This document shows positions 56,729 to 64,000 of a DNA stretch of 64,000 nucleotides, in pieces. The stretch covers positions 95,029 through 159,028 of the forward strand of contig QHTE01000048.1 in NCBI GenBank assembly GCA_003220685.1, written 5' to 3'. The stretch comes from Candidatus Rokuibacteriota bacterium. Its GTDB lineage: Bacteria; Methylomirabilota; Methylomirabilia; Rokubacteriales; CSP1-6. Within the stretch, counting starts at the first letter, position 1. Each line of letters opens with the position of its first letter. The position numbers were made by a program, and so were the translations under genes. The notes beneath the pieces are model-generated. The model saw only the letters and a list, made by a program, of their open reading frames with translations, was not told where the DNA came from and searched no databases.

Positions 56729-57376
56729 TCATCGCCGTCGCAGCTGCCGCAGCTCACCGAGGGTCATGGCCGGAATGGTCACGCCGTTGCTGGCCATCCA
56801 TCCGGCCATCGACTGGCTGTTCGGCCAGGGCACGGTCTTCGTCATGATCCAGTCGCCCTCGACGACGTGCTCCCGTCCGAGCACGCGAAACGCGAACGAG
56901 TCGGGGGTGATTCGCTTGGCGGACAGGTCGAATTGCGCTCGGTCCTCCTCCACCTTGCGCATGTCCCACGCCGGGGGGATCGCGCCCACGCCGTCCGGGA
57001 AGCCCTTGGCCATCAAGCTCAGCACGAGGATCATGACGTGCGCGACTCGAGCCTGGTACTTGACGCGAAACGCTTCGGCGTCCTGAGCGCCGTGGACGCC
57101 GAAGAACAGGAACGTGGAGTCGGGCTGGGTCAGGTGCAGGATCTTTCGCGCTCGGGTGGCGGAGAGGTCCTCGAACAAGACTTCGTTATTCGTGAAGACC
57201 GAAAAGTTGTAGGTCCCCGTCGCGTCCTCGCGGACCGCCCTCGTCACCCGCATCTTGACCTGCCCCATGCAGCCCAGATCGGAGCAGCCCTTCCAGGTGA
57301 CGAGCGGCGACTGGGCCTCGAGGGATACCGGGAGCGCGAGCAGGCACCCGAGGGCAACGAGAGTTCTCGGCCGCAC
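56729..57376 (-). CDS. secreted hypothetical protein
   Basis: 215 aa from GTG 57376. Signal peptide 'VRPRTLVALGCLLALPVSLEAQ'. I recognise no family. The codon pattern is consistent with coding. Confidence 0.55.
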   Translation of the reverse strand: MRPRTLVALGCLLALPVSLEAQSPLVTWKGCSDLGCMGQVKMRVTRAVREDATGTYNFSVFTNNEVLFEDLSATRARKILHLTQPDSTFLFFGVHGAQDAEAFRVKYQARVAHVMILVLSLMAKGFPDGVGAIPPAWDMRKVEEDRAQFDLSAKRITPDSFAFRVLGREHVVEGDWIMTKTVPWPNSQSMAGWMASNGVTIPAMTLGELRQLRRR

Positions 57377-57389
57377 GCCCGCACCGCGC

Positions 57390-58052
57390 TTACTTGGTCG
57401 CGAAGCAGTAGAAGAGGCCGTTGCCTCCCGTGCTCTTGAGATCGTTCTGGCTACAGCCGCCGTCGGGCCCGCGCGAGGGATGCGACGAGTTCCAGGACTT
57501 CGACGCGTCGTCGTCGCGCAGCCCCTGTCGATCGTGATGGCCGACCATCGCCGCGCCCTGGCCGCTCTTCGTCCAGTTGCCGCAGGTGCGGTCCTCGCCC
57601 GCCGCAAACGCGGTGCCGTCCGGCTGGGAGCCCGTCAGGATGTCGTGCATGTTCGGCGTGTCGCCGCGCCCGTTGACCGTCTCGCCCTTCTCGGTCAGCG
57701 CCGTCTGCTTGTTGATGTTGTTGTTGCCGTGCAGCTCGGCCAGGTCCTTGGCGACGATGATGCCCTTGGCGTTCTTCCATGGGCCGCTACCGATCCGGTC
57801 GTGCGCGTTGACCGCGCCGGGGCCCTGCGTGCTCAGATACGCCTTCCAGGTCTTGGCGCCGGCGCCCGCCGTCGCGCCGAGCAGCTGGCAGAGCTGGTCG
57901 GCACCCACGAGGCCGCCGAGGTTCCCGCCCTTGCCGGGGCCAGCGCTGGTGATGAAGAAGCCAATCTCGGACTGCTGCGCCTGGCCGGTGCTGCCGCCGA
58001 GCGAGAGCAGCGCCGCCGACACGCCAACCGACAGCCAAATTCTCGGGCTCAT
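57390..58052 (-). CDS. secreted Gly/Cys-containing hypothetical protein (possibly DUF1554/lectin-like)
   Basis: 220 aa with a signal peptide. 'FFITSAGPGKGGNLGGLVGADQLCQ' and the C-terminal 'GLFYCFA' recur in secreted proteins of unknown function (from memory, weak). Confidence 0.6.
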   Translation of the reverse strand: MSPRIWLSVGVSAALLSLGGSTGQAQQSEIGFFITSAGPGKGGNLGGLVGADQLCQLLGATAGAGAKTWKAYLSTQGPGAVNAHDRIGSGPWKNAKGIIVAKDLAELHGNNNINKQTALTEKGETVNGRGDTPNMHDILTGSQPDGTAFAAGEDRTCGNWTKSGQGAAMVGHHDRQGLRDDDASKSWNSSHPSRGPDGGCSQNDLKSTGGNGLFYCFATK

Positions 58053-58081
58053 TCGGGTCTCCTTGTAGGGTCGTCGCGCGG

Positions 58082-58549
58082 TCAGGCCGTCGCGCCGGCG
58101 CGCCGCGCTTCGCGCAGGCCCGCGAGGATCGCCTCGCGGTCGAGGCTCATCTCCATCAGCGCGACCTGCGCCTCGTACACGTCCGCCGGCACCTGGTCGC
58201 GTACTTCCGGCTCGAACACGTGAAACACGGGGAGCCCCAACGGGACTCCGGCCAACGGGCCCGCGTAGGAGGGATCGCCGGCGACGACGGTCTGGGCGAG
58301 CGTCTGCGTGCTCTCGGCATCGGGCGTGCCGAGAAGGACCACCACGCCATTGCCGTGCTCGTCAGCGACTCGCTTCACCGCCGCCTGATCCTCCAGGCCC
58401 ATGGCGCCCGCCGCGGTTCAGACGTAGCAGGCGGTCAGGGTCAGCACCACCTCGGCGCCCGCGCGACTGGCGCACTCCGCCACCGCGGGGCCCGGCACGC
58501 CGTCGCGCTCACCGAGCGCGATGACCTTCTTGCCTCGAAGTTCCATCAT
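58082..58549 (-). CDS. grdA: glycine/sarcosine/betaine reductase complex selenoprotein A (UGA-Sec at 58418-58420)
   Basis: ORFs 58418..58669 and 58082..58402 are in frame. The joined product '[80 protein letters not shown]' matches GrdA, including the CxxU motif. AAAGGAG RBS. 155 aa. Confidence 0.85.
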
Positions 58550-58712
58550 GTGGCTCCTTTCTAATGGGGGACCCGCGAGGGGTCCCCCATACCCCTCCAC
58601 GCTCGCCAGCGCCCCGGCGGAGCCGTGGCGCTGGGCCTTTCTAGATGGGGGACCTAGACGGGTCCCCATACCCCTCCACGCTCGCCAGCGCCCCGGCGGA
58701 GCCGTGGCGCTG
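58550..58712 (-). repeat. tandem direct repeat (84 + 79 nt) of a two-hairpin element between grdC and grdA
   Basis: Units are 58550-58633 and 58634-58712, with a ~49-nt core that looks identical on reading. Each unit has the hairpin CAGCGCC-N13-GGCGCTG plus a second hairpin: ATGGGGGACCC-CTCGC-GGGTCCCCCAT (perfect 11 bp) in the grdA-proximal unit, bulged in the other. Each unit ends in TAGAAAGG. Confidence 0.8.
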
Positions 58713-58730
58713 CTCGACCACCGGCGGAGG

Positions 58731-60203
58731 TCACGTGCTGCCGGCGTTGCGCTCCAGGACGAGGGAGAGCCCGTCCGGCAGCTGCGTCATGCGTCCCAGG
58801 AACAGACTACCCTTGCCCGCGAACATCGTGCGCGTGAGGCGGCCCTCGGTGAGCGCGCGTCGCGCGTGACCGAGATACGGGATCGCCGAGGCGATGTGGC
58901 CCTGGGTCGGCGAGAAGCCCGGCATGCCCCGCGCGCGGACGAAGTCGTCGATGCTCTCGCGCGCGATCAGCTTCTCGACCACGGCCAGGCTCGCCAGGGT
59001 GCGGTAGTTGTTGAGCGGGACGTTGCCGCTCCCCGCGGGCTCGGTCGCCTCGGGGTTGTGTAGCTCGAGCGAGAACCGGTCCACGTCGAGCAACGTCAGT
59101 CCCACGCGGCCGAGCGGCTCGCTGTAGAGCGCCTTCATGACCGCGAGCGGCGCCGAGCCCGAGGCGACCTCGTGGCGGCCGATCGCGTCGAGCCGCAAGG
59201 TGGGCGAGACGCCGTCGTCGCGCGAGACGTGCGCGGCGAAGCCGGCGAGCACGTCCTCGACGATTGGCATCGCGTGCTTGACGTGCCCCTGGAATTTCAT
59301 CCCGAGCTTCGCCAGCGAGCCACCCGCCAGGACGACCACGTCGTCGTGCAGGCCGCTGCGGACCAGGGCCCCGGCCAGCATCAACGCGTGCATCGGCCCG
59401 CTGCAGAACGCCTTGACATCGCTGCCGGTCGCGCGGCCGCAGCCTGCCCATTCGGCCACCGCCTTGGCGACGTTGCCGCCGCCGCGCTGGTAGCGATCGC
59501 CCACCGCCTCCTCGCCGCAATTGATGACGTAGCGGACGTCGGCGGACGCGATCGCCCCGGGTCGCGCGAGCAGGTGACGCAGCGCCAGCGCCGCCGTTGC
59601 CTTGCACGCGAGATTCTCCAGCAACACCTGGCCGGTGAGCGTGTCGTCCTCGTCGTGCCCGGGCAGCATGGCGCCGAGGAGCCGGCCGTCCGCGCCTACG
59701 ATTCGCAGCGCGCGGTGCCGCTCGACGCGCTCCTCGAGCACGGCCGCGGTGACGCCGGGCGGTACGGTCGGGCTGCCGGCGGCGCGACCGATGACCGGGT
59801 GCGCGTCGAGCGCGCTTCGCGCGCGGTCGGCCAGCTCGCGGTCGAGCCCGAGCAGCTGGAAGCCGTCGCAGGCGGCCAACAAGCCGAAAAACTCGTCCTC
59901 GGGCATGATCTCGCCGTCGGGACCGAAGCGCGCCGCCCTCTCGATCGGATGACGATGCCAGGGAGTCGGCCGCGCCGCGAGCTCGTCCACCCCCATGTTG
60001 CCGATGAACACCTGGTTCGGCGCGTAGGCCTGCGCGACGTCCCAGGCGCGCAGATGCGGTCGCAGGAAGTCGATCGGGTCGTGCACCTCGCGCAGGACCC
60101 GCAACGGCTTGGAGCCGAGCCGGACGAGGCTCGGCACGTGCGCGAGCACGAGCGAGACCGCGCGAATGACGGGCATCCCGTCCGACGTCACGCGAGGCAT
60201 CAT
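58731..60203 (-). CDS. grdC: glycine/sarcosine/betaine reductase complex component C, beta subunit-like (thiolase-like fold)
   Basis: About 490 aa. '[24 protein letters not shown]' resembles the GrdC N-terminus as I remember it. '[15 protein letters not shown]' is a thiolase-like Cys region. ATGATG at 60198-60203 overlaps the araC stop; ATG 60176 is an alternative start. Confidence 0.8.
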
Positions 60204-60976
60204 ACCCTCTGGCTGGCTCGCAGCGCACGATAGCGCGCGGGTGTCAGCCCGAAGGCGGACTTGAACGCGCGGGTGAAATGCGCCTGATCGGCGAAGCCGG
60301 CGTCGCACGCCACCTCGACCAGGGCCCGCCGCCGGTGGATCAGCTCCCGCGCCAGGTCGAGCCGCCGCATGAGCAGATACCGGTACGGGCTTGTGCCGAA
60401 CATCATCCGGAACTGGCGGGCCAGATCGTAGCGGGTCAGTCCCGTAACGGACTCCAGCTCCGCCGAACGCACGACCCGAGTTCTCTCGGCGTCGAGGAAG
60501 CGGCGAGCGCGCTCGAGGGCGGCGGCATCGACGCGCCGCGAGGCTCGGGATGGCTGTCCCCCGCGTTCGGCGGCGAGCAGGCCTTCGGCCAGATCGACGA
60601 CGAGGCCGTCCACCGCCAGGGGCTCCGTCGGGAGTCGGAAGGTGGCGTCAATGGCGTGGGCCAACCTCGCGCTCGTCGACACCGGATCGCCCACGAACGG
60701 CAGCGGGCAGGCGCGGCCGCGGAGCGTTCGCAGCGCTTCGGCGAGCTGCGAGGGCTCCACGTAGACGATCCGATAGCCGAACCCCTCGGCGGTGCCGGCG
60801 CGGCCGTCGTGGGCCTCGTCCGGGTACAGCACGGCGACCTGGCCCGGCAGGCACGCCCGCGCCGCGCCCCGATAGTCGAAGACCTGGACGCCGCTGTCGG
60901 TCAGGCCGATCGCGTAGGTATCGTGACGATGCTTCTCGTATGCCCGGCCGGCGAACCACGCGCGGAACAGCTCCAC
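60200..60976 (-). CDS. AraC family transcriptional regulator (AraC_N-like sensor plus HTH_18)
   Basis: C-terminal 'LTRYDLARQFRMMFGTSPYRYLLMRRLDLAR..L....VACDAGFADQAHFTRAFK' is the AraC HTH. N-terminal 'GVELFRAWFAGRAYEKHRHDTYAIG'. Start placed at GTG 60976; GTG 61075 is possible. Upstream ORF-track residues are junk. Confidence 0.8.
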   Translation of the reverse strand: MELFRAWFAGRAYEKHRHDTYAIGLTDSGVQVFDYRGAARACLPGQVAVLYPDEAHDGRAGTAEGFGYRIVYVEPSQLAEALRTLRGRACPLPFVGDPVSTSARLAHAIDATFRLPTEPLAVDGLVVDLAEGLLAAERGGQPSRASRRVDAAALERARRFLDAERTRVVRSAELESVTGLTRYDLARQFRMMFGTSPYRYLLMRRLDLARELIHRRRALVEVACDAGFADQAHFTRAFKSAFGLTPARYRALRASQRV

Positions 60977-61064
60977 GCCCTCGGCCGGCCTGGCGCTGGC
61001 GATCCAGCCGCCGATCGGGTCCCCGCAAGATCGTTCAAGACCCGCGCCGCCCGATCTGGTCTCC

Positions 61065-61685
61065 TTGGTAGGCACTGGAGACAAGAGTACGACTACGGAG
61101 CAACTCGTCGCGTTCCTTCTCTTCGCGGTGGTGGCCGCGGTCACGCCCGGCCCCAGCAACATCATGGTGACGGCCGCCGGGGCGAACGCCGGCCTCCTCA
61201 AAGGGCTTCCGTGCCTCTTGGGTGTCGCGACCGGCATGGGGCTCATGATGTTTCTGGTGCCGCTGGGGCTGGGGAGCGTCGTCCTCGGCCATCCCCTCGT
61301 GCTGAAGACGCTCAACTGGGGCGGCGCGGCGTTCCTGCTCTGGCTCGCGTGGAGGATCGCGACCTCGATCGGTCTCGAAACGACTCGAGAGCCCCAGCCC
61401 GTCGGCTATTTCAAGGCTGCGGCTTTTCAGTGGGTGAACCCGAAAGCGTGGCTCGTGAGCGCGAGCGCGGCGGGAACGTTTCTCAGCGCGGGGGCGGGGA
61501 GCCCGGTCGTGCAGTCCGTCTATCTCGGCGGGCTGTTCTTCCTCGCGGCGCTGCCGAGCTGCTTCGTGTGGCTGGCGTTCGGCGCCACGGTCCAGCGCAT
61601 GCTCCGGAGCCCGCGCCGGCTCCGGGCGTTCAACGTCGCGATGGGGGTGCTCCTCGCCGTCTCGATCGTCCTCATCGCCGCGTAG
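61065..61685 (+). CDS. LysE/RhtB family amino-acid exporter
   Basis: 206 aa from TTG. 'LLFAVVAAVTPGPSNI' is the LysE N-terminal motif, with about 6 TM segments. Divergent from araC. Confidence 0.8.
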   Translation: MVGTGDKSTTTEQLVAFLLFAVVAAVTPGPSNIMVTAAGANAGLLKGLPCLLGVATGMGLMMFLVPLGLGSVVLGHPLVLKTLNWGGAAFLLWLAWRIATSIGLETTREPQPVGYFKAAAFQWVNPKAWLVSASAAGTFLSAGAGSPVVQSVYLGGLFFLAALPSCFVWLAFGATVQRMLRSPRRLRAFNVAMGVLLAVSIVLIAA

Positions 61686-62379
61686 ACTCGCGGCCCCCCT
61701 CGCGAGTCTCCACCGGGCTCTGACCGGCGCTCGTCGCCGTCTCGGGCGCCAGCGGAATGACACCGCCCGGCTCGCCGGCCAGGATCCAGTCGATGAGCAG
61801 GCGATAGCGGTCCGTCGGCACGGCGCCAACCAGCGAGAGCTTCTCGTTGAGGACGACCGTCGGCAGGCCGGACACGCCGAACCACGCGGCACCCTCGGCG
61901 CAGTCCCGCAGCACGGCCTCGTACGCCTCGCCGGCGTAGTCGGCCTCGAAGCGCGCCGGATCGAGCGCGGTCTCGCGGAGAAGGGTGCGCAGCACCTCGG
62001 GGCGCGAGATGTCGAGGTTGTCGCGAAAATGCGCGGTGAAGAGGCGCTCGTGAAACCGTTCGAACGCGGCTTCGCCCTGGAGCTCGGCGCACTTGGCGGC
62101 TGTCAGCGCCGGGACGCTCGAGGACGGCAGCGGGGTGTCGATCGCCGGCGGGACGAAGAACGCGCGCGGCTCCTCGGCGCCGACGCGCTGCCGGCCCTCG
62201 CGCGTCTTCTGCGTGACGCGCCGGTCAGGCTGCTCGCCGGGAATCAGCGGGAAGGTCCGCCAGTGGAGCCTGACGCGCTCGCCGTAGGCCCGCTGGATCT
62301 CGCGAAGCCGCACCGCGGCGTTGTAGCACCAGGGGCACAGGTAGTCGGAGAAGACGTCGAGCCGGACGGGTGCCGTCAT
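61672..62379 (-). CDS. DsbA/FrnE-like thioredoxin-fold oxidoreductase (CPWC active site)
   Basis: 235 aa. 'LDVFSDYLCPWCYNA' N-terminal motif. The ATG overlaps the grdB stop (ATGA at 62376-62379). Confidence 0.8.
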   Translation of the reverse strand: MTAPVRLDVFSDYLCPWCYNAAVRLREIQRAYGERVRLHWRTFPLIPGEQPDRRVTQKTREGRQRVGAEEPRAFFVPPAIDTPLPSSSVPALTAAKCAELQGEAAFERFHERLFTAHFRDNLDISRPEVLRTLLRETALDPARFEADYAGEAYEAVLRDCAEGAAWFGVSGLPTVVLNEKLSLVGAVPTDRYRLLIDWILAGEPGGVIPLAPETATSAGQSPVETREGGRESTRR

Positions 62380-63695
62380 TCGCGCCCGAACACCGTGGGT
62401 TTCGCGACCTCGGTCCGGAGCGCTTGCAGCGCCTGCTCGACGATGCGCCGCCGCAGCGCCTTCTCGTCCTCGGGCGAGAGGTCCGCGCTGCCGAGCGGAT
62501 GGATGATGCCCGCGGCGGACACGATGCGATTGGCGCCGACCATTACCGCGACCGGCGTCATGGTCGAGACCTGCACCGTCGGCAGCCCCGCCCGCTCGAG
62601 CTCTCGCGTGATCGCTGCGCCGCAGCGAGTGCTGGTGCCTCAGGTGGAGGTGAGGATGACGGCGTCGACGCCGGCCGCGCGCAGCTTTTCCGCGATCTCG
62701 CGGCCCATGCGCGCGCTCTGGGCGAGCGTGGTCGCGACGCCGACCGTTGAGTAGATGGTTTCATGCAGCTTGCCGATGGCGCCGCTCTGCTCCAGCTCGC
62801 GGGCGACGTCGACCGGGACCAGACGGTGCGGATCCTGCTTCACCCAGGTCGTGTCGTAGCCGCGATGAGGATTGTCGTACTGGGCCGCGTCGAGGCTCGA
62901 CTTGCCCTCGATGCTGTAGGCGCCGTAGCGCGTCGCGTTCAGCGCCTCGATGCCGTCGGGGTTGCCGCGCGGGACCAGGCCGCCGTCGGTGACGAGCGCG
63001 ATCGTCGCGCCGGCGAGCGTCTTGACGAGCCGCGGCGCGGCGACGGGCGGAAACGCCGGTCTCGGGACCTCGGTCGTGAAGGCGCGGCCGGCCAGCTTGT
63101 CGAGCAGCATCGCGACGGCGCGGTCGGCGGCGTTGGCGCCGGCGACGATATTGCGCGTCACACCGCGGGCGAAATATCCGTGAGCTGCCGGGGCGCCGAT
63201 CGCCTCGCCGCGGGCGAGCTTCAGCCCGAGCGCGACGAGCCGCTGCACTTCCGGGAGCATGCGCGTGGCCTCCGCGCCGGTCTGGACGACGTAGACCTGA
63301 CGGCGGTAGAGCTCGACGCCGGGATTCTCGGCGTGCATGCCGGTGACGGTCGGAATCTTCAGCTCGGCCTGCGCGGCGGCGCAGAGCGCGCCGCACGCGA
63401 CGCCGTAGCGGCCCGCCAGGAACGCGGGCCCCGCGACCAGCAAATCGGGGCGCGCCGCGGCGACCAGCGCGACCAGCTCGGTGGTCGCGCGCTCGGCCTG
63501 CTCGGCGGCGTAGTTGTCGCCACAGATCACCGTCGCGACGACCGTGCCCGCGTCGCCGAGCGCCTGCTGAACGGCCCGCGCGGCGCCGATGGCGCCGTCG
63601 ACCACCTGCGGCCCGACGCCGGCTTTGTCCTCGCCGCCGAGCTGGCCGAAGAACTGGTTGAGGTAGCAGACAACCCGCAAGGTCTCAGCTGCCAT
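62376..63695 (-). CDS. grdB: glycine/sarcosine/betaine reductase selenoprotein B-type subunit (UGA-Sec at 62640-62642)
   Basis: ORFs 62640..63698 and 62376..62576 are in frame with no intervening stop. 'LRVVCYLNQFFGQLGGEDKAG' at the N-terminus and '..AVILTST-U-GTSTRCGA..' match GrdB. About 439 aa. ATG 63695 overlaps the upstream stop (TGATG); GTG 63698 is an alternative. Confidence 0.85.
62612..62628 (-). promoter_or_regulatory. candidate SECIS-like stem-loop downstream of the grdB UGA
   Basis: Sense strand TCGCTGC-GGC-GCAGCGA (7-bp stem) begins 12 nt 3' of the UGA at 62640-62642. Not modelled energetically. Confidence 0.3.
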
Positions 63696-64000
63696 CACCG
63701 CACCTCCGCCATCACTCTGGTCGCCCCGACCTGCTCGATCGCGCCGCAGAGCCCGCCGTAGGTGGCGCGCGTCTCGCCCAGGAGCTTCGACGCGAGATCG
63801 TCGGCGCCGATCACGCGGTCCATCGCCGGCAAGGTGATCGGCTCCTGGCTGCTCCCGACGTTCACCAGCGCGTCGACTCCCGGAAAATCGAAGAGCAGCA
63901 TGCCCTCCGCGCTACCGTCGGTCGACATGTCCTCGACGACGGCCGTCGTCTTGACGCCGAGGGCTTCGCACTGCGCGGCCGCCTGCGCCATGTCGACGTG
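63695..64000 (-). CDS. grdE: glycine/sarcosine/betaine reductase component B proprotein (GrdE/GrdG/GrdI-type), C-terminal part; continues beyond the window
   Basis: The frame is open to the window end. '..QCEALGVKTTAVVEDMSTDG...VNVGSSQEPITLPAMDRVIG' resembles the GrdE-family C-terminal region as I remember it ('..CKALEEAGIKTV...GNANEVITLPPMDKVIG'). Its stop overlaps the grdB start. Confidence 0.65.
   Translation of the reverse strand, partial: HVDMAQAAAQCEALGVKTTAVVEDMSTDGSAEGMLLFDFPGVDALVNVGSSQEPITLPAMDRVIGADDLASKLLGETRATYGGLCGAIEQVGATRVMAEVR

Follow-up and report, generated by a model that had tools for sequence, protein, structure and literature searches.

The grdC-grdA spacer of a Rokubacteria genome most probably holds two tandem copies of a dispersed, hairpin-forming repeat

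The analysed window, a 64,000-nt stretch of a metagenome-assembled genome (MAG) of a Candidatus Rokuibacteriota bacterium, encodes on its minus strand the beta subunit of component C of glycine/sarcosine/betaine reductase (GrdC) and, downstream of it, selenoprotein A (GrdA), both of which match the relevant equivalog profiles above their cut-offs (Table 1). The grdC reading frame is closed by a TGA (58731-58733), while grdA starts at ATG 58549 and specifies selenocysteine (Sec) by a UGA at codon 44, within the motif CYVUTAAG. GrdC relatives taken from named genomes, with 83-89% identity, are proteins of Candidatus Rokubacteria (Rokuibacteriota) MAGs. A grdB-like selenoprotein gene (62640-63698), which runs on past a UGA, accompanies grdC and grdA in the same genome (G000), and between it and grdC lie two minus-strand ORFs (60200-61315 and 61672-62379), one of which encodes an AraC-type HTH C-terminal domain (E 2e-12) and the other a thioredoxin-like protein weakly similar to the Rcas_1661 (seleno)lipoprotein family (E 2e-11). 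The subject of this study is the 181-nt spacer (58730-58550) that separates grdC from grdA.

Table 1. Features of the grdC-grdA region; H1 and H2, hairpins 1 and 2; CM R1, covariance model of the repeat family; units are named by their position relative to grdA
Feature	Position	Strand	Basis and remarks
grdC (glycine/sarcosine/betaine reductase component C, beta subunit)	58731..60173	-	NF040746 equivalog, 584.7 bits (cut-off 450)
13 nt of spacer, CCTCCGCCGGTGG	58718..58730	-	5' of the array and free of it; from the sequence
Distal unit	58638..58717	-	H1 58686-58712, linker GCGAGCGTGGAGGGGT, H2 58645-58669, tail CTAGAAAGGCC; CM R1 89.1 bits, E 3e-15
Proximal unit	58558..58638	-	H1 58607-58633, linker as in the distal unit, H2 58564-58590; CM R1 72.4 bits, E 1e-11
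Shine-Dalgarno sequence (SD) of grdA, AAAGGAG	58554-58560	-	native flank; occurs in the element-less spacers L002, L005 and L088
grdA (selenoprotein A, 155 aa)	58082..58549	-	translation; NF040748 equivalog, 194.3 bits (cut-off 130)

Tandem Repeats Finder delimits an array at 58556-58712 (period 79, 2.0 copies, 92% matches, score 270), which is by far the strongest among the 18 tandem arrays of the window, and a repeat search shows that a 49-nt core is 100% identical at 58585-58633 and 58664-58712. A preliminary description of this region, made by reading the sequence, had proposed two head-to-tail units with an identical core of about this size, two hairpins in each unit and a structure-preserving difference in the second hairpin, and our results agree with it in all three respects. 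In both units H1 reads CAGCGCC-A-CGGC-TCC-GCCG-G-GGCGCTG, while H2 has a perfect 11-bp stem with a 5-nt loop in the proximal unit and a shorter stem with one bulge in the distal unit. The predicted folding energies are -43.2 kcal/mol for the distal unit and -50.6 kcal/mol for the proximal unit (z -2.1 and -3.2, respectively), and -111.8 kcal/mol for the whole spacer (z -3.4), in the predicted fold of which the SD of grdA is unpaired. The same description had the array fill the whole spacer and start with H1. Most of the spacer is indeed filled and H1 is as described, but 13 of the 181 nt are free on the 5' side, and the unit as defined by the repeat family begins at TCGAG (58717), 5 nt further upstream. 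The free 13-nt stretch may be a diverged remnant of the 5' leader of the family; at its position the related locus L003 reads GGAAGCGTGG, which resembles the family leader GCGAAGCGATCT.

The array belongs to a dispersed family. Short-word BLASTN of the spacer against its own genome detected related two-hairpin units on five other contigs, and with BLASTN, nhmmer and a covariance model taken together, 16 copies at about 13 unrelated loci were found in this 6.09-Mb Rokubacteria MAG (the nhmmer profile converged at 16 hits, and the covariance model R1, built from 14 copies, recovers those 16). The copies have in common the two hairpins, the linker TCCGAGCG, a run of G residues and the tail CCCCCCAT followed by A/T-rich bases, and are therefore related by descent rather than being convergent terminators; the linker and loop sequence that they share contradicts unrelated origins. 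In the family as a whole, H1 is GCGCC-a-CGGC-loop-GCCG-g-GGCGC, the linker TCCGAGCG with the G-run follows, H2 has the form GGGGGGCC-loop-GGCCCCCC-AT, and a short A/T-rich tail ends the unit. Many copies that appear single carry an extra H2 17-20 nt upstream, and the full family unit is therefore H2-leader-H1-linker-H2; the grdA copies are without the 5' H2. A second tandem array of the family in the same genome (C37:238787-238952, 2-3 units with a spacing of 86 nt) immediately follows the stop of a gene on the opposite strand. As the family has no match in Rfam or in the searched literature, which also contained nothing relevant on repeats or glycine reductase of Rokubacteria, it appears to be undescribed.

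Two other views of the dispersed copies were considered and set aside. H2 on its own is not a high-copy solitary REP sequence, since strict matching locates just 13 loci in 6.1 Mb and loose matching about 45. A composite transposon, suggested by two inverted copies that lie 8.6 kb apart on contig C23 and have identical 12-nt leaders, was rejected because the two copies cease to be similar about 45 nt upstream of the unit; what this pair shares upstream is just the upstream H2 and the leader.

The repeat is common among relatives of the window genome, all of which are MAGs. The R1 model finds 6-62 copies per genome in each of 17 genomes of the genus, and is positive in most other genera of the GTDB family. 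In a phylum sample of 251 genomes from 68 genera, it detects the repeat in 104 genomes belonging to 38 genera, almost all within that one GTDB family. In the relative G005, many of the 55 copies are arranged head to tail in arrays of 2-5 units, the period being about 87-90 nt. Tandem duplication is a habit of the repeat family. Arrays are of one orientation throughout, the only inverted neighbour pair seen being that at L101. Clean pairs of filled and empty sites occur at other loci, the informative ones being L109/C83, L119/C118, L095/C15 and L096/C50; in several other filled/empty comparisons, the global MAFFT alignment was too poorly registered for junctions to be placed. At two sites of the window genome (C15:97452-97507 and C50:84670-84785) a solo H2 (GGGGGCCC-loop-GGGCCCCC) is found where G005 has a full H2-H1-H2 unit (L095 and L096, respectively). 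These sites look like products of deletion via recombination between flanking H2 modules, an indication that recombination of this kind lengthens and shortens the arrays.

Pairing within the hairpins is maintained across the family. When 45 distinct copies were aligned to R1, 96.2% of the cells were in standard pairs and 7 pairs were changed on both sides, one of them being AU in 19 copies, CG in 19 and GC in 3. None of 500 shuffles reached the observed pairing values, and sliding the partners lowered pairing to 47-61%. A G-U pair is frequent as well (34 of the 45 copies). Since pairing and covariation hold in all the dispersed copies, the hairpins are maintained family-wide. Covariation, proposed earlier as a check on the regions upstream of grdA, is thus present across the family; it supports a structured repeat and says nothing about grdA in particular. 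An alternative fold had been noted between the linker GAGGGG and CCCCTC of the proximal H2: the pairing is possible, but it is a family-wide feature and not specific to grdA, and as the columns of the G-run and of the C-rich arm of H2 are nearly invariant, covariation gives no support either way.

The copies lie almost exclusively at the 3' ends of genes. Those of the window genome and of the genomes of the genus are all intergenic. In terms of a crude GC3-based ORF filter, both neighbours could be called at 22 of the 27 G005 sites, of which 12 lie between convergent genes and none between divergent ones, while the co-directional sites comprise 4 in sense orientation (as in grdC-grdA) and 6 in antisense. 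The stop codon of an opposite-strand gene falls within a few nucleotides of the 3' end of the element at about 15 of the 27 G005 sites, and the same pattern is seen at 5 of the 13 loci of the window genome. The distance is very often 0-4 nt (…GGCCCCCCAT followed at the boundary by NTA…), as noted at sites among L092-L121 of G005 and at C37:293162, C76:92330, C19:154383 and C63:73548 of the window genome; TAA or TAG is also frequent in the A/T-rich tail when it is read on the sense strand. Placement next to stop codons may reflect an insertion preference for them or the supply of new stops by the element itself. A distribution of this kind at gene 3' ends is classic for REP-like elements and is equally expected from selection against insertions in promoters and ORFs.

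A comparison of the same spacer in other Rokubacteria indicates that the element is an optional component of this junction. Of about 14 loci, 7 lack it in front of grdA, namely L001/G008 (spacer of 12 nt), L002/G011 (stop and start overlapping in ATGA), L005, L007, L008, L009 and L088/G002. One full copy is present in L003/G014 and, together with an upstream H2 remnant, in L089/G015; decayed copies reduced to the G-run and H2 occur in L004/G010, L085/G003 and L090/G016; and two tandem copies of a sequence type of their own are found in L006. Empty spacers also carry the grdA SD (L002 AAAGGAGCGACATGATGG, L005 GAAGAAAGGAGCAAGGCATG and L088 TAGAAAGGACCCTCTATG), and the AAAGGAG sequence, regarded at first as the end of the proximal unit, is therefore native flank. 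In a nucleotide tree of grdC and grdA, the window sequence groups with the empty L002 and the single-copy L003 with 100/99 support, so that the element is missing even from a close relative. At least six changes between presence and absence are needed on this tree, and a single clade of element-bearers is rejected (AU p = 7e-56). This makes it a facultative element, subject to turnover at the grdC-grdA site; it is dispensable in the relatives, and has been gained or lost there repeatedly. One old insertion followed by many losses and repeated insertion beside the stop codon fit the tree equally well.

The relationship between the copies of close relatives points to the way in which the array was formed. 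The single copy of L003 and the proximal unit have in common the derived GGAGGGGTATGGGGGACCC and the junction CCATTAGAAAGGA...CACATGATGGA, and the L003 copy is therefore orthologous to the proximal unit, the second unit having arisen later. The sequence between the two units, CTAGAAAGGCC, reproduces the 3' flank TAGAAAGGAGCC, the duplication having taken a part of the SD along; the AGAAAGG between the units is thus derived from the flank and indicates that the second unit arose by local duplication and not by a second insertion. A complication is that the 49-nt core is identical in both units while H2 differs at several positions, a pattern not expected of units that were simply duplicated and then diverged uniformly, so that gene conversion or template switching at the hairpins must be invoked.

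Arrival of the element has evidently rewritten the last codons of grdC together with its stop, as far as can be judged from a comparison of GrdC tails. GrdC of the window ends with ...ERNAGST before the stop, and that of relatives without the element with ...ERNGAS. Longer C-terminal tails (ERNGARAGTA, ERNGANAGAA and ERNGARPSTA) are seen in element-bearing relatives, compared with ERNGAS in the empty ones (grdC 3' ends of L084, L087, L089 and L090 vs. those of L086, L088 and L005). In L006 (4384-4630; CAVUPM010000003.1, a Rokubacteria MAG), the grdC frame is free of stops through both copies and into the grdA ATG (…VERNPRALEPVGMTSGATAAPGRPEPPGG…SREENHMELRGKK…). This could mean a GrdC-linker-GrdA fusion; such an open frame could also arise by chance in a sequence of 76-82% GC, with a rough estimate of about 1 in 6.

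Open frames within the spacer of the window were considered as leader peptides and rejected. The 30-nt mini-ORF of 9 codons noted in the preliminary description is present at 58590-58561, but its ATG is not conserved, most family copies having CTTGGGGGG instead of ATGGGGG. The grdA frame, for its part, is open upstream to an ATG within the distal H2 (ORF 58418..58669, minus strand), and gene callers may on this account add a 40-codon N-terminal extension to GrdA from ATG 58669. This ATG is likewise not conserved in the family, and open frames are expected at more than 70% GC. The start of GrdA at ATG 58549 is favoured because the spacers of relatives are short.

Taken together, these results indicate, with a probability that we put at about 0.85, that the spacer consists of two tandem copies of a non-coding interspersed repeat of Rokubacteria, about 80 nt long, which is REP/MITE-like and not dedicated to grdA. 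The following history would be consistent with the comparisons. One copy would have entered, or have been inherited in, a tight grdC-grdA junction, which in element-less relatives has a spacer of 0-45 nt and is probably translationally coupled. With the insertion, GrdC would have acquired another C-terminal tail and its gene another stop codon. Once the lineage had separated from that of L003/G014, a segment of about 80 nt, comprising the element and 8-10 nt of its 3' flank (TAGAAAGG), would have been duplicated in place, and H2 of the two copies would have diverged later with the stem kept; in general, units are probably added to the arrays and removed from them through recombination or slippage between palindromic H2 modules. 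As to consequences, the element may be expected to break the stop/start coupling of grdC and grdA, and with a structured spacer of 181 nt grdA would initiate from its own accessible SD. By analogy to REP sequences inside operons, stable hairpins between the two cistrons might form a barrier to decay or a partial block to transcription and thereby shift the GrdC:GrdA ratio.

The preliminary description had offered several readings of the spacer, one of which was a cis-regulatory RNA (attenuator, riboswitch-like or translational operator). If specific to grdA, such an RNA would respond to a ligand or a protein. The position immediately 5' of the grdA SD, the stable structure, and the alternative pairings available to the G-run with the C-rich arm of H2 and to the H2 arms of the two units are in keeping with such a role, which is nevertheless very improbable, as the same element is found in either orientation at about 13 unrelated intergenic loci of the same genome, a kind of dispersal that the description itself had named as grounds for refutation, and is missing from the orthologous spacers of L001, L002, L005, L007-L009 and L088, while it has no Rfam match, the ATG of its mini-ORF is not conserved in the family and the SD next to it is native flank. 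Still less probable is the view of the element as a scar, left behind when a rearrangement took grdD out of its place between the two genes. In its favour, grdD (component C alpha subunit, NF040747) was not found in the window assembly, where the best hit scored 28.9 bits at a cut-off of 350. The supposed scar is, however, a genome-wide repeat; sister Rokubacteria have element-less grdC-grdA junctions, and among 80 loci of Chloroflexota, Desulfobacterota, Latescibacterota, Entotheonella and others, roughly half have grdA directly after grdC, less than about 120 nt away.

A reading that deserves more weight, though we consider it improbable on balance, is that of an exapted RNA-level module of 3' ends and intercistronic spacers (a terminator devoid of a U-tract, a hairpin that stabilises or processes mRNA, or a site bound by a protein), retained for tuning the GrdA:GrdC ratio; translation would be uncoupled and one stretch of the transcript shielded. 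Strong conservation of structure, near-exclusive 3'-end placement and family-wide persistence could reflect a host function instead of selfish spread, and retention by selection may account for the occupation of the spacer in about half of the relatives. More specifically, none of the 22 fully called sites is divergent where about 25% would be expected (0.75^22, roughly 0.002), but purifying selection against insertions in promoters and ORFs also gives such placement. Compensatory changes maintain the hairpins, and the common G-U pair favours the fold of the G-rich strand, which is the mRNA sense at grdA; orientation relative to adjacent genes is, on the other hand, mixed, and there is neither a U-tract nor a terminator call. 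Finally, the repeat persists across 38 genera, no RAYT being found in the 17 genomes of the genus, and in the 7 occupied spacers of about 14 relatives H2 always ends 17-22 nt before the ATG, whereas its absence from closely related genomes and its decay in three others show it to be dispensable for grd function. A broader form of this idea, in which H2-H1-H2 is a host-maintained RNA/DNA module of one Rokubacteria family that spreads independently of RAYT/IS200, marks gene 3' ends and operon junctions, and is kept at grdC-grdA in half of the lineages as a setter of the GrdA:GrdC ratio, maybe serving as an in-frame GrdC-GrdA linker in L006, is more doubtful again.

In a permissive scan of 57900-59100 with Rfam 15, only chance-level fragments of at most 15 bits, far below the gathering scores, fell within 58556-58717, and the only hit with E below 0.1 was a sub-threshold one outside the spacer (snoZ6 at 57944-58003, 24.8 bits vs. 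the gathering score of 35). A consensus scan of 57300-60400 returned no promoter and 0 terminator-like sites. The tail of the element, AU(C/G/U)UA, is not U-rich, and an intrinsic terminator was rejected on the ground that the GC-rich hairpin is present while the U-tract is missing. A search for PF01797 (Y1/IS200-like tyrosine transposases, RAYT), the gene of which is typically flanked by REPs in REP-RAYT systems, gave no hit in the window genome (87.6% complete) or in any of the 17 genomes of the genus (six relatives at least 95% complete), with 6 of 14 control genomes positive. A strict REP-RAYT system was rejected on this result and on the arrangement of the units in direct arrays instead of inverted REPIN doublets; the earlier suggestion of a REP/MITE-like element is thus right in kind, the repeat being dispersed, structured, intergenic and array-forming, but not in the sense of that system. 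No mobilising enzyme was identified in this search, which covered Y1 transposases. Full units begin and end with a palindromic H2 in a manner resembling terminal inverted repeats, while the 5' CGAGG and 3' CCCCCCAT ends are not inverted repeats of each other, and no target-site duplication is evident at grdC-grdA, L109/C83 or L119/C118, where flanks have diverged and junctions are uncertain by several nucleotides. As no enzyme, target-site duplication or clear terminal inverted repeats were seen, we infer a mobile element from the distribution of the copies only.

The features of interest are the absence of a RAYT, the composite H2-H1-H2 unit, the direct arrays and the turnover at one junction; a new mechanism is not among them. 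For annotation, tandem hairpins in front of a selenoprotein gene mimic a riboswitch or attenuator, and flagging the family avoids false calls of regulatory RNA in Rokubacteria MAGs and accounts for odd C-terminal tails and shifted stops of neighbouring genes. In biological terms, the family is a REP-like population of an uncultured high-GC soil phylum, with no RAYT, the transposase thought to maintain REPINs, found in the genus. The turnover of copy number (0, 1, 2 or decayed) at one operon junction provides a natural series for the effects of the element on expression of grdC and grdA, two genes that have to supply their products in different amounts.

Several known systems resemble the Rokubacteria repeat in part. 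With intrinsic terminators it has in common a GC-rich stem-loop just past stop codons, often serving two convergent genes, but it consists of two distinct hairpins with a conserved linker, its copies are related by descent, and it occurs inside an operon and has no U-tract. MITEs such as Correia/NEMIS of Neisseria and ERIC/IRU of enterobacteria are non-coding, hairpin-folding elements of roughly 100 nt in intergenic or intercistronic positions, which are co-transcribed with their neighbours, can affect how mRNA is processed, and are not found in every one of a set of related genomes. The Rokubacteria repeat is likewise non-coding, about 100 nt long, intergenic or intercistronic, hairpin-forming and variable in presence. 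It differs from them in that no target-site duplication or ordinary terminal inverted repeats are seen (only palindromic H2 ends), no parent insertion sequence was identified, and its tandem arrays are unusual for MITEs.

The mycobacterial interspersed repetitive units (MIRUs), reportedly described by Supply et al. in 1997, are tandem units of 40-100 nt in intercistronic spacers of operons. They occur in a high-GC genome and vary in copy number between close relatives; they are described as uniform in orientation with the operon and as containing small ORFs, which overlap the stop and start codons on either side. Presence of 0, 1 or 2 Rokubacteria units in the same spacer among relatives and the arrays of 2-5 units in G005 are reminiscent of MIRUs, from which the repeat differs by its mixed orientation (4 sense and 6 antisense), by a unit length (79/80 nt at grdC-grdA) that is no multiple of 3, by an open frame through the units in L006 only, and by the lack of sequence similarity.

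There is a further parallel with the REP/BIME sequences and REPIN-RAYT systems of Proteobacteria, which are short GC-rich imperfect palindromes in tens of copies, confined to extragenic positions, most frequent past stop codons, between convergent genes and within operons, clustered in arrays, inherited vertically within a lineage, and subject to compensatory changes that keep the hairpins (Bertels & Rainey 2011, PMC3116915, PMC3337134). All these features are common to the Rokubacteria repeat. It is distinguished by the absence of RAYT/Y1 from the 17 genus genomes and by units in direct tandem arrays instead of inverted doublets; and, while a REP is a single palindrome of 20-40 nt, the Rokubacteria unit is a composite H2-H1-H2 structure of about 80-125 nt, hosted by an uncultured phylum.
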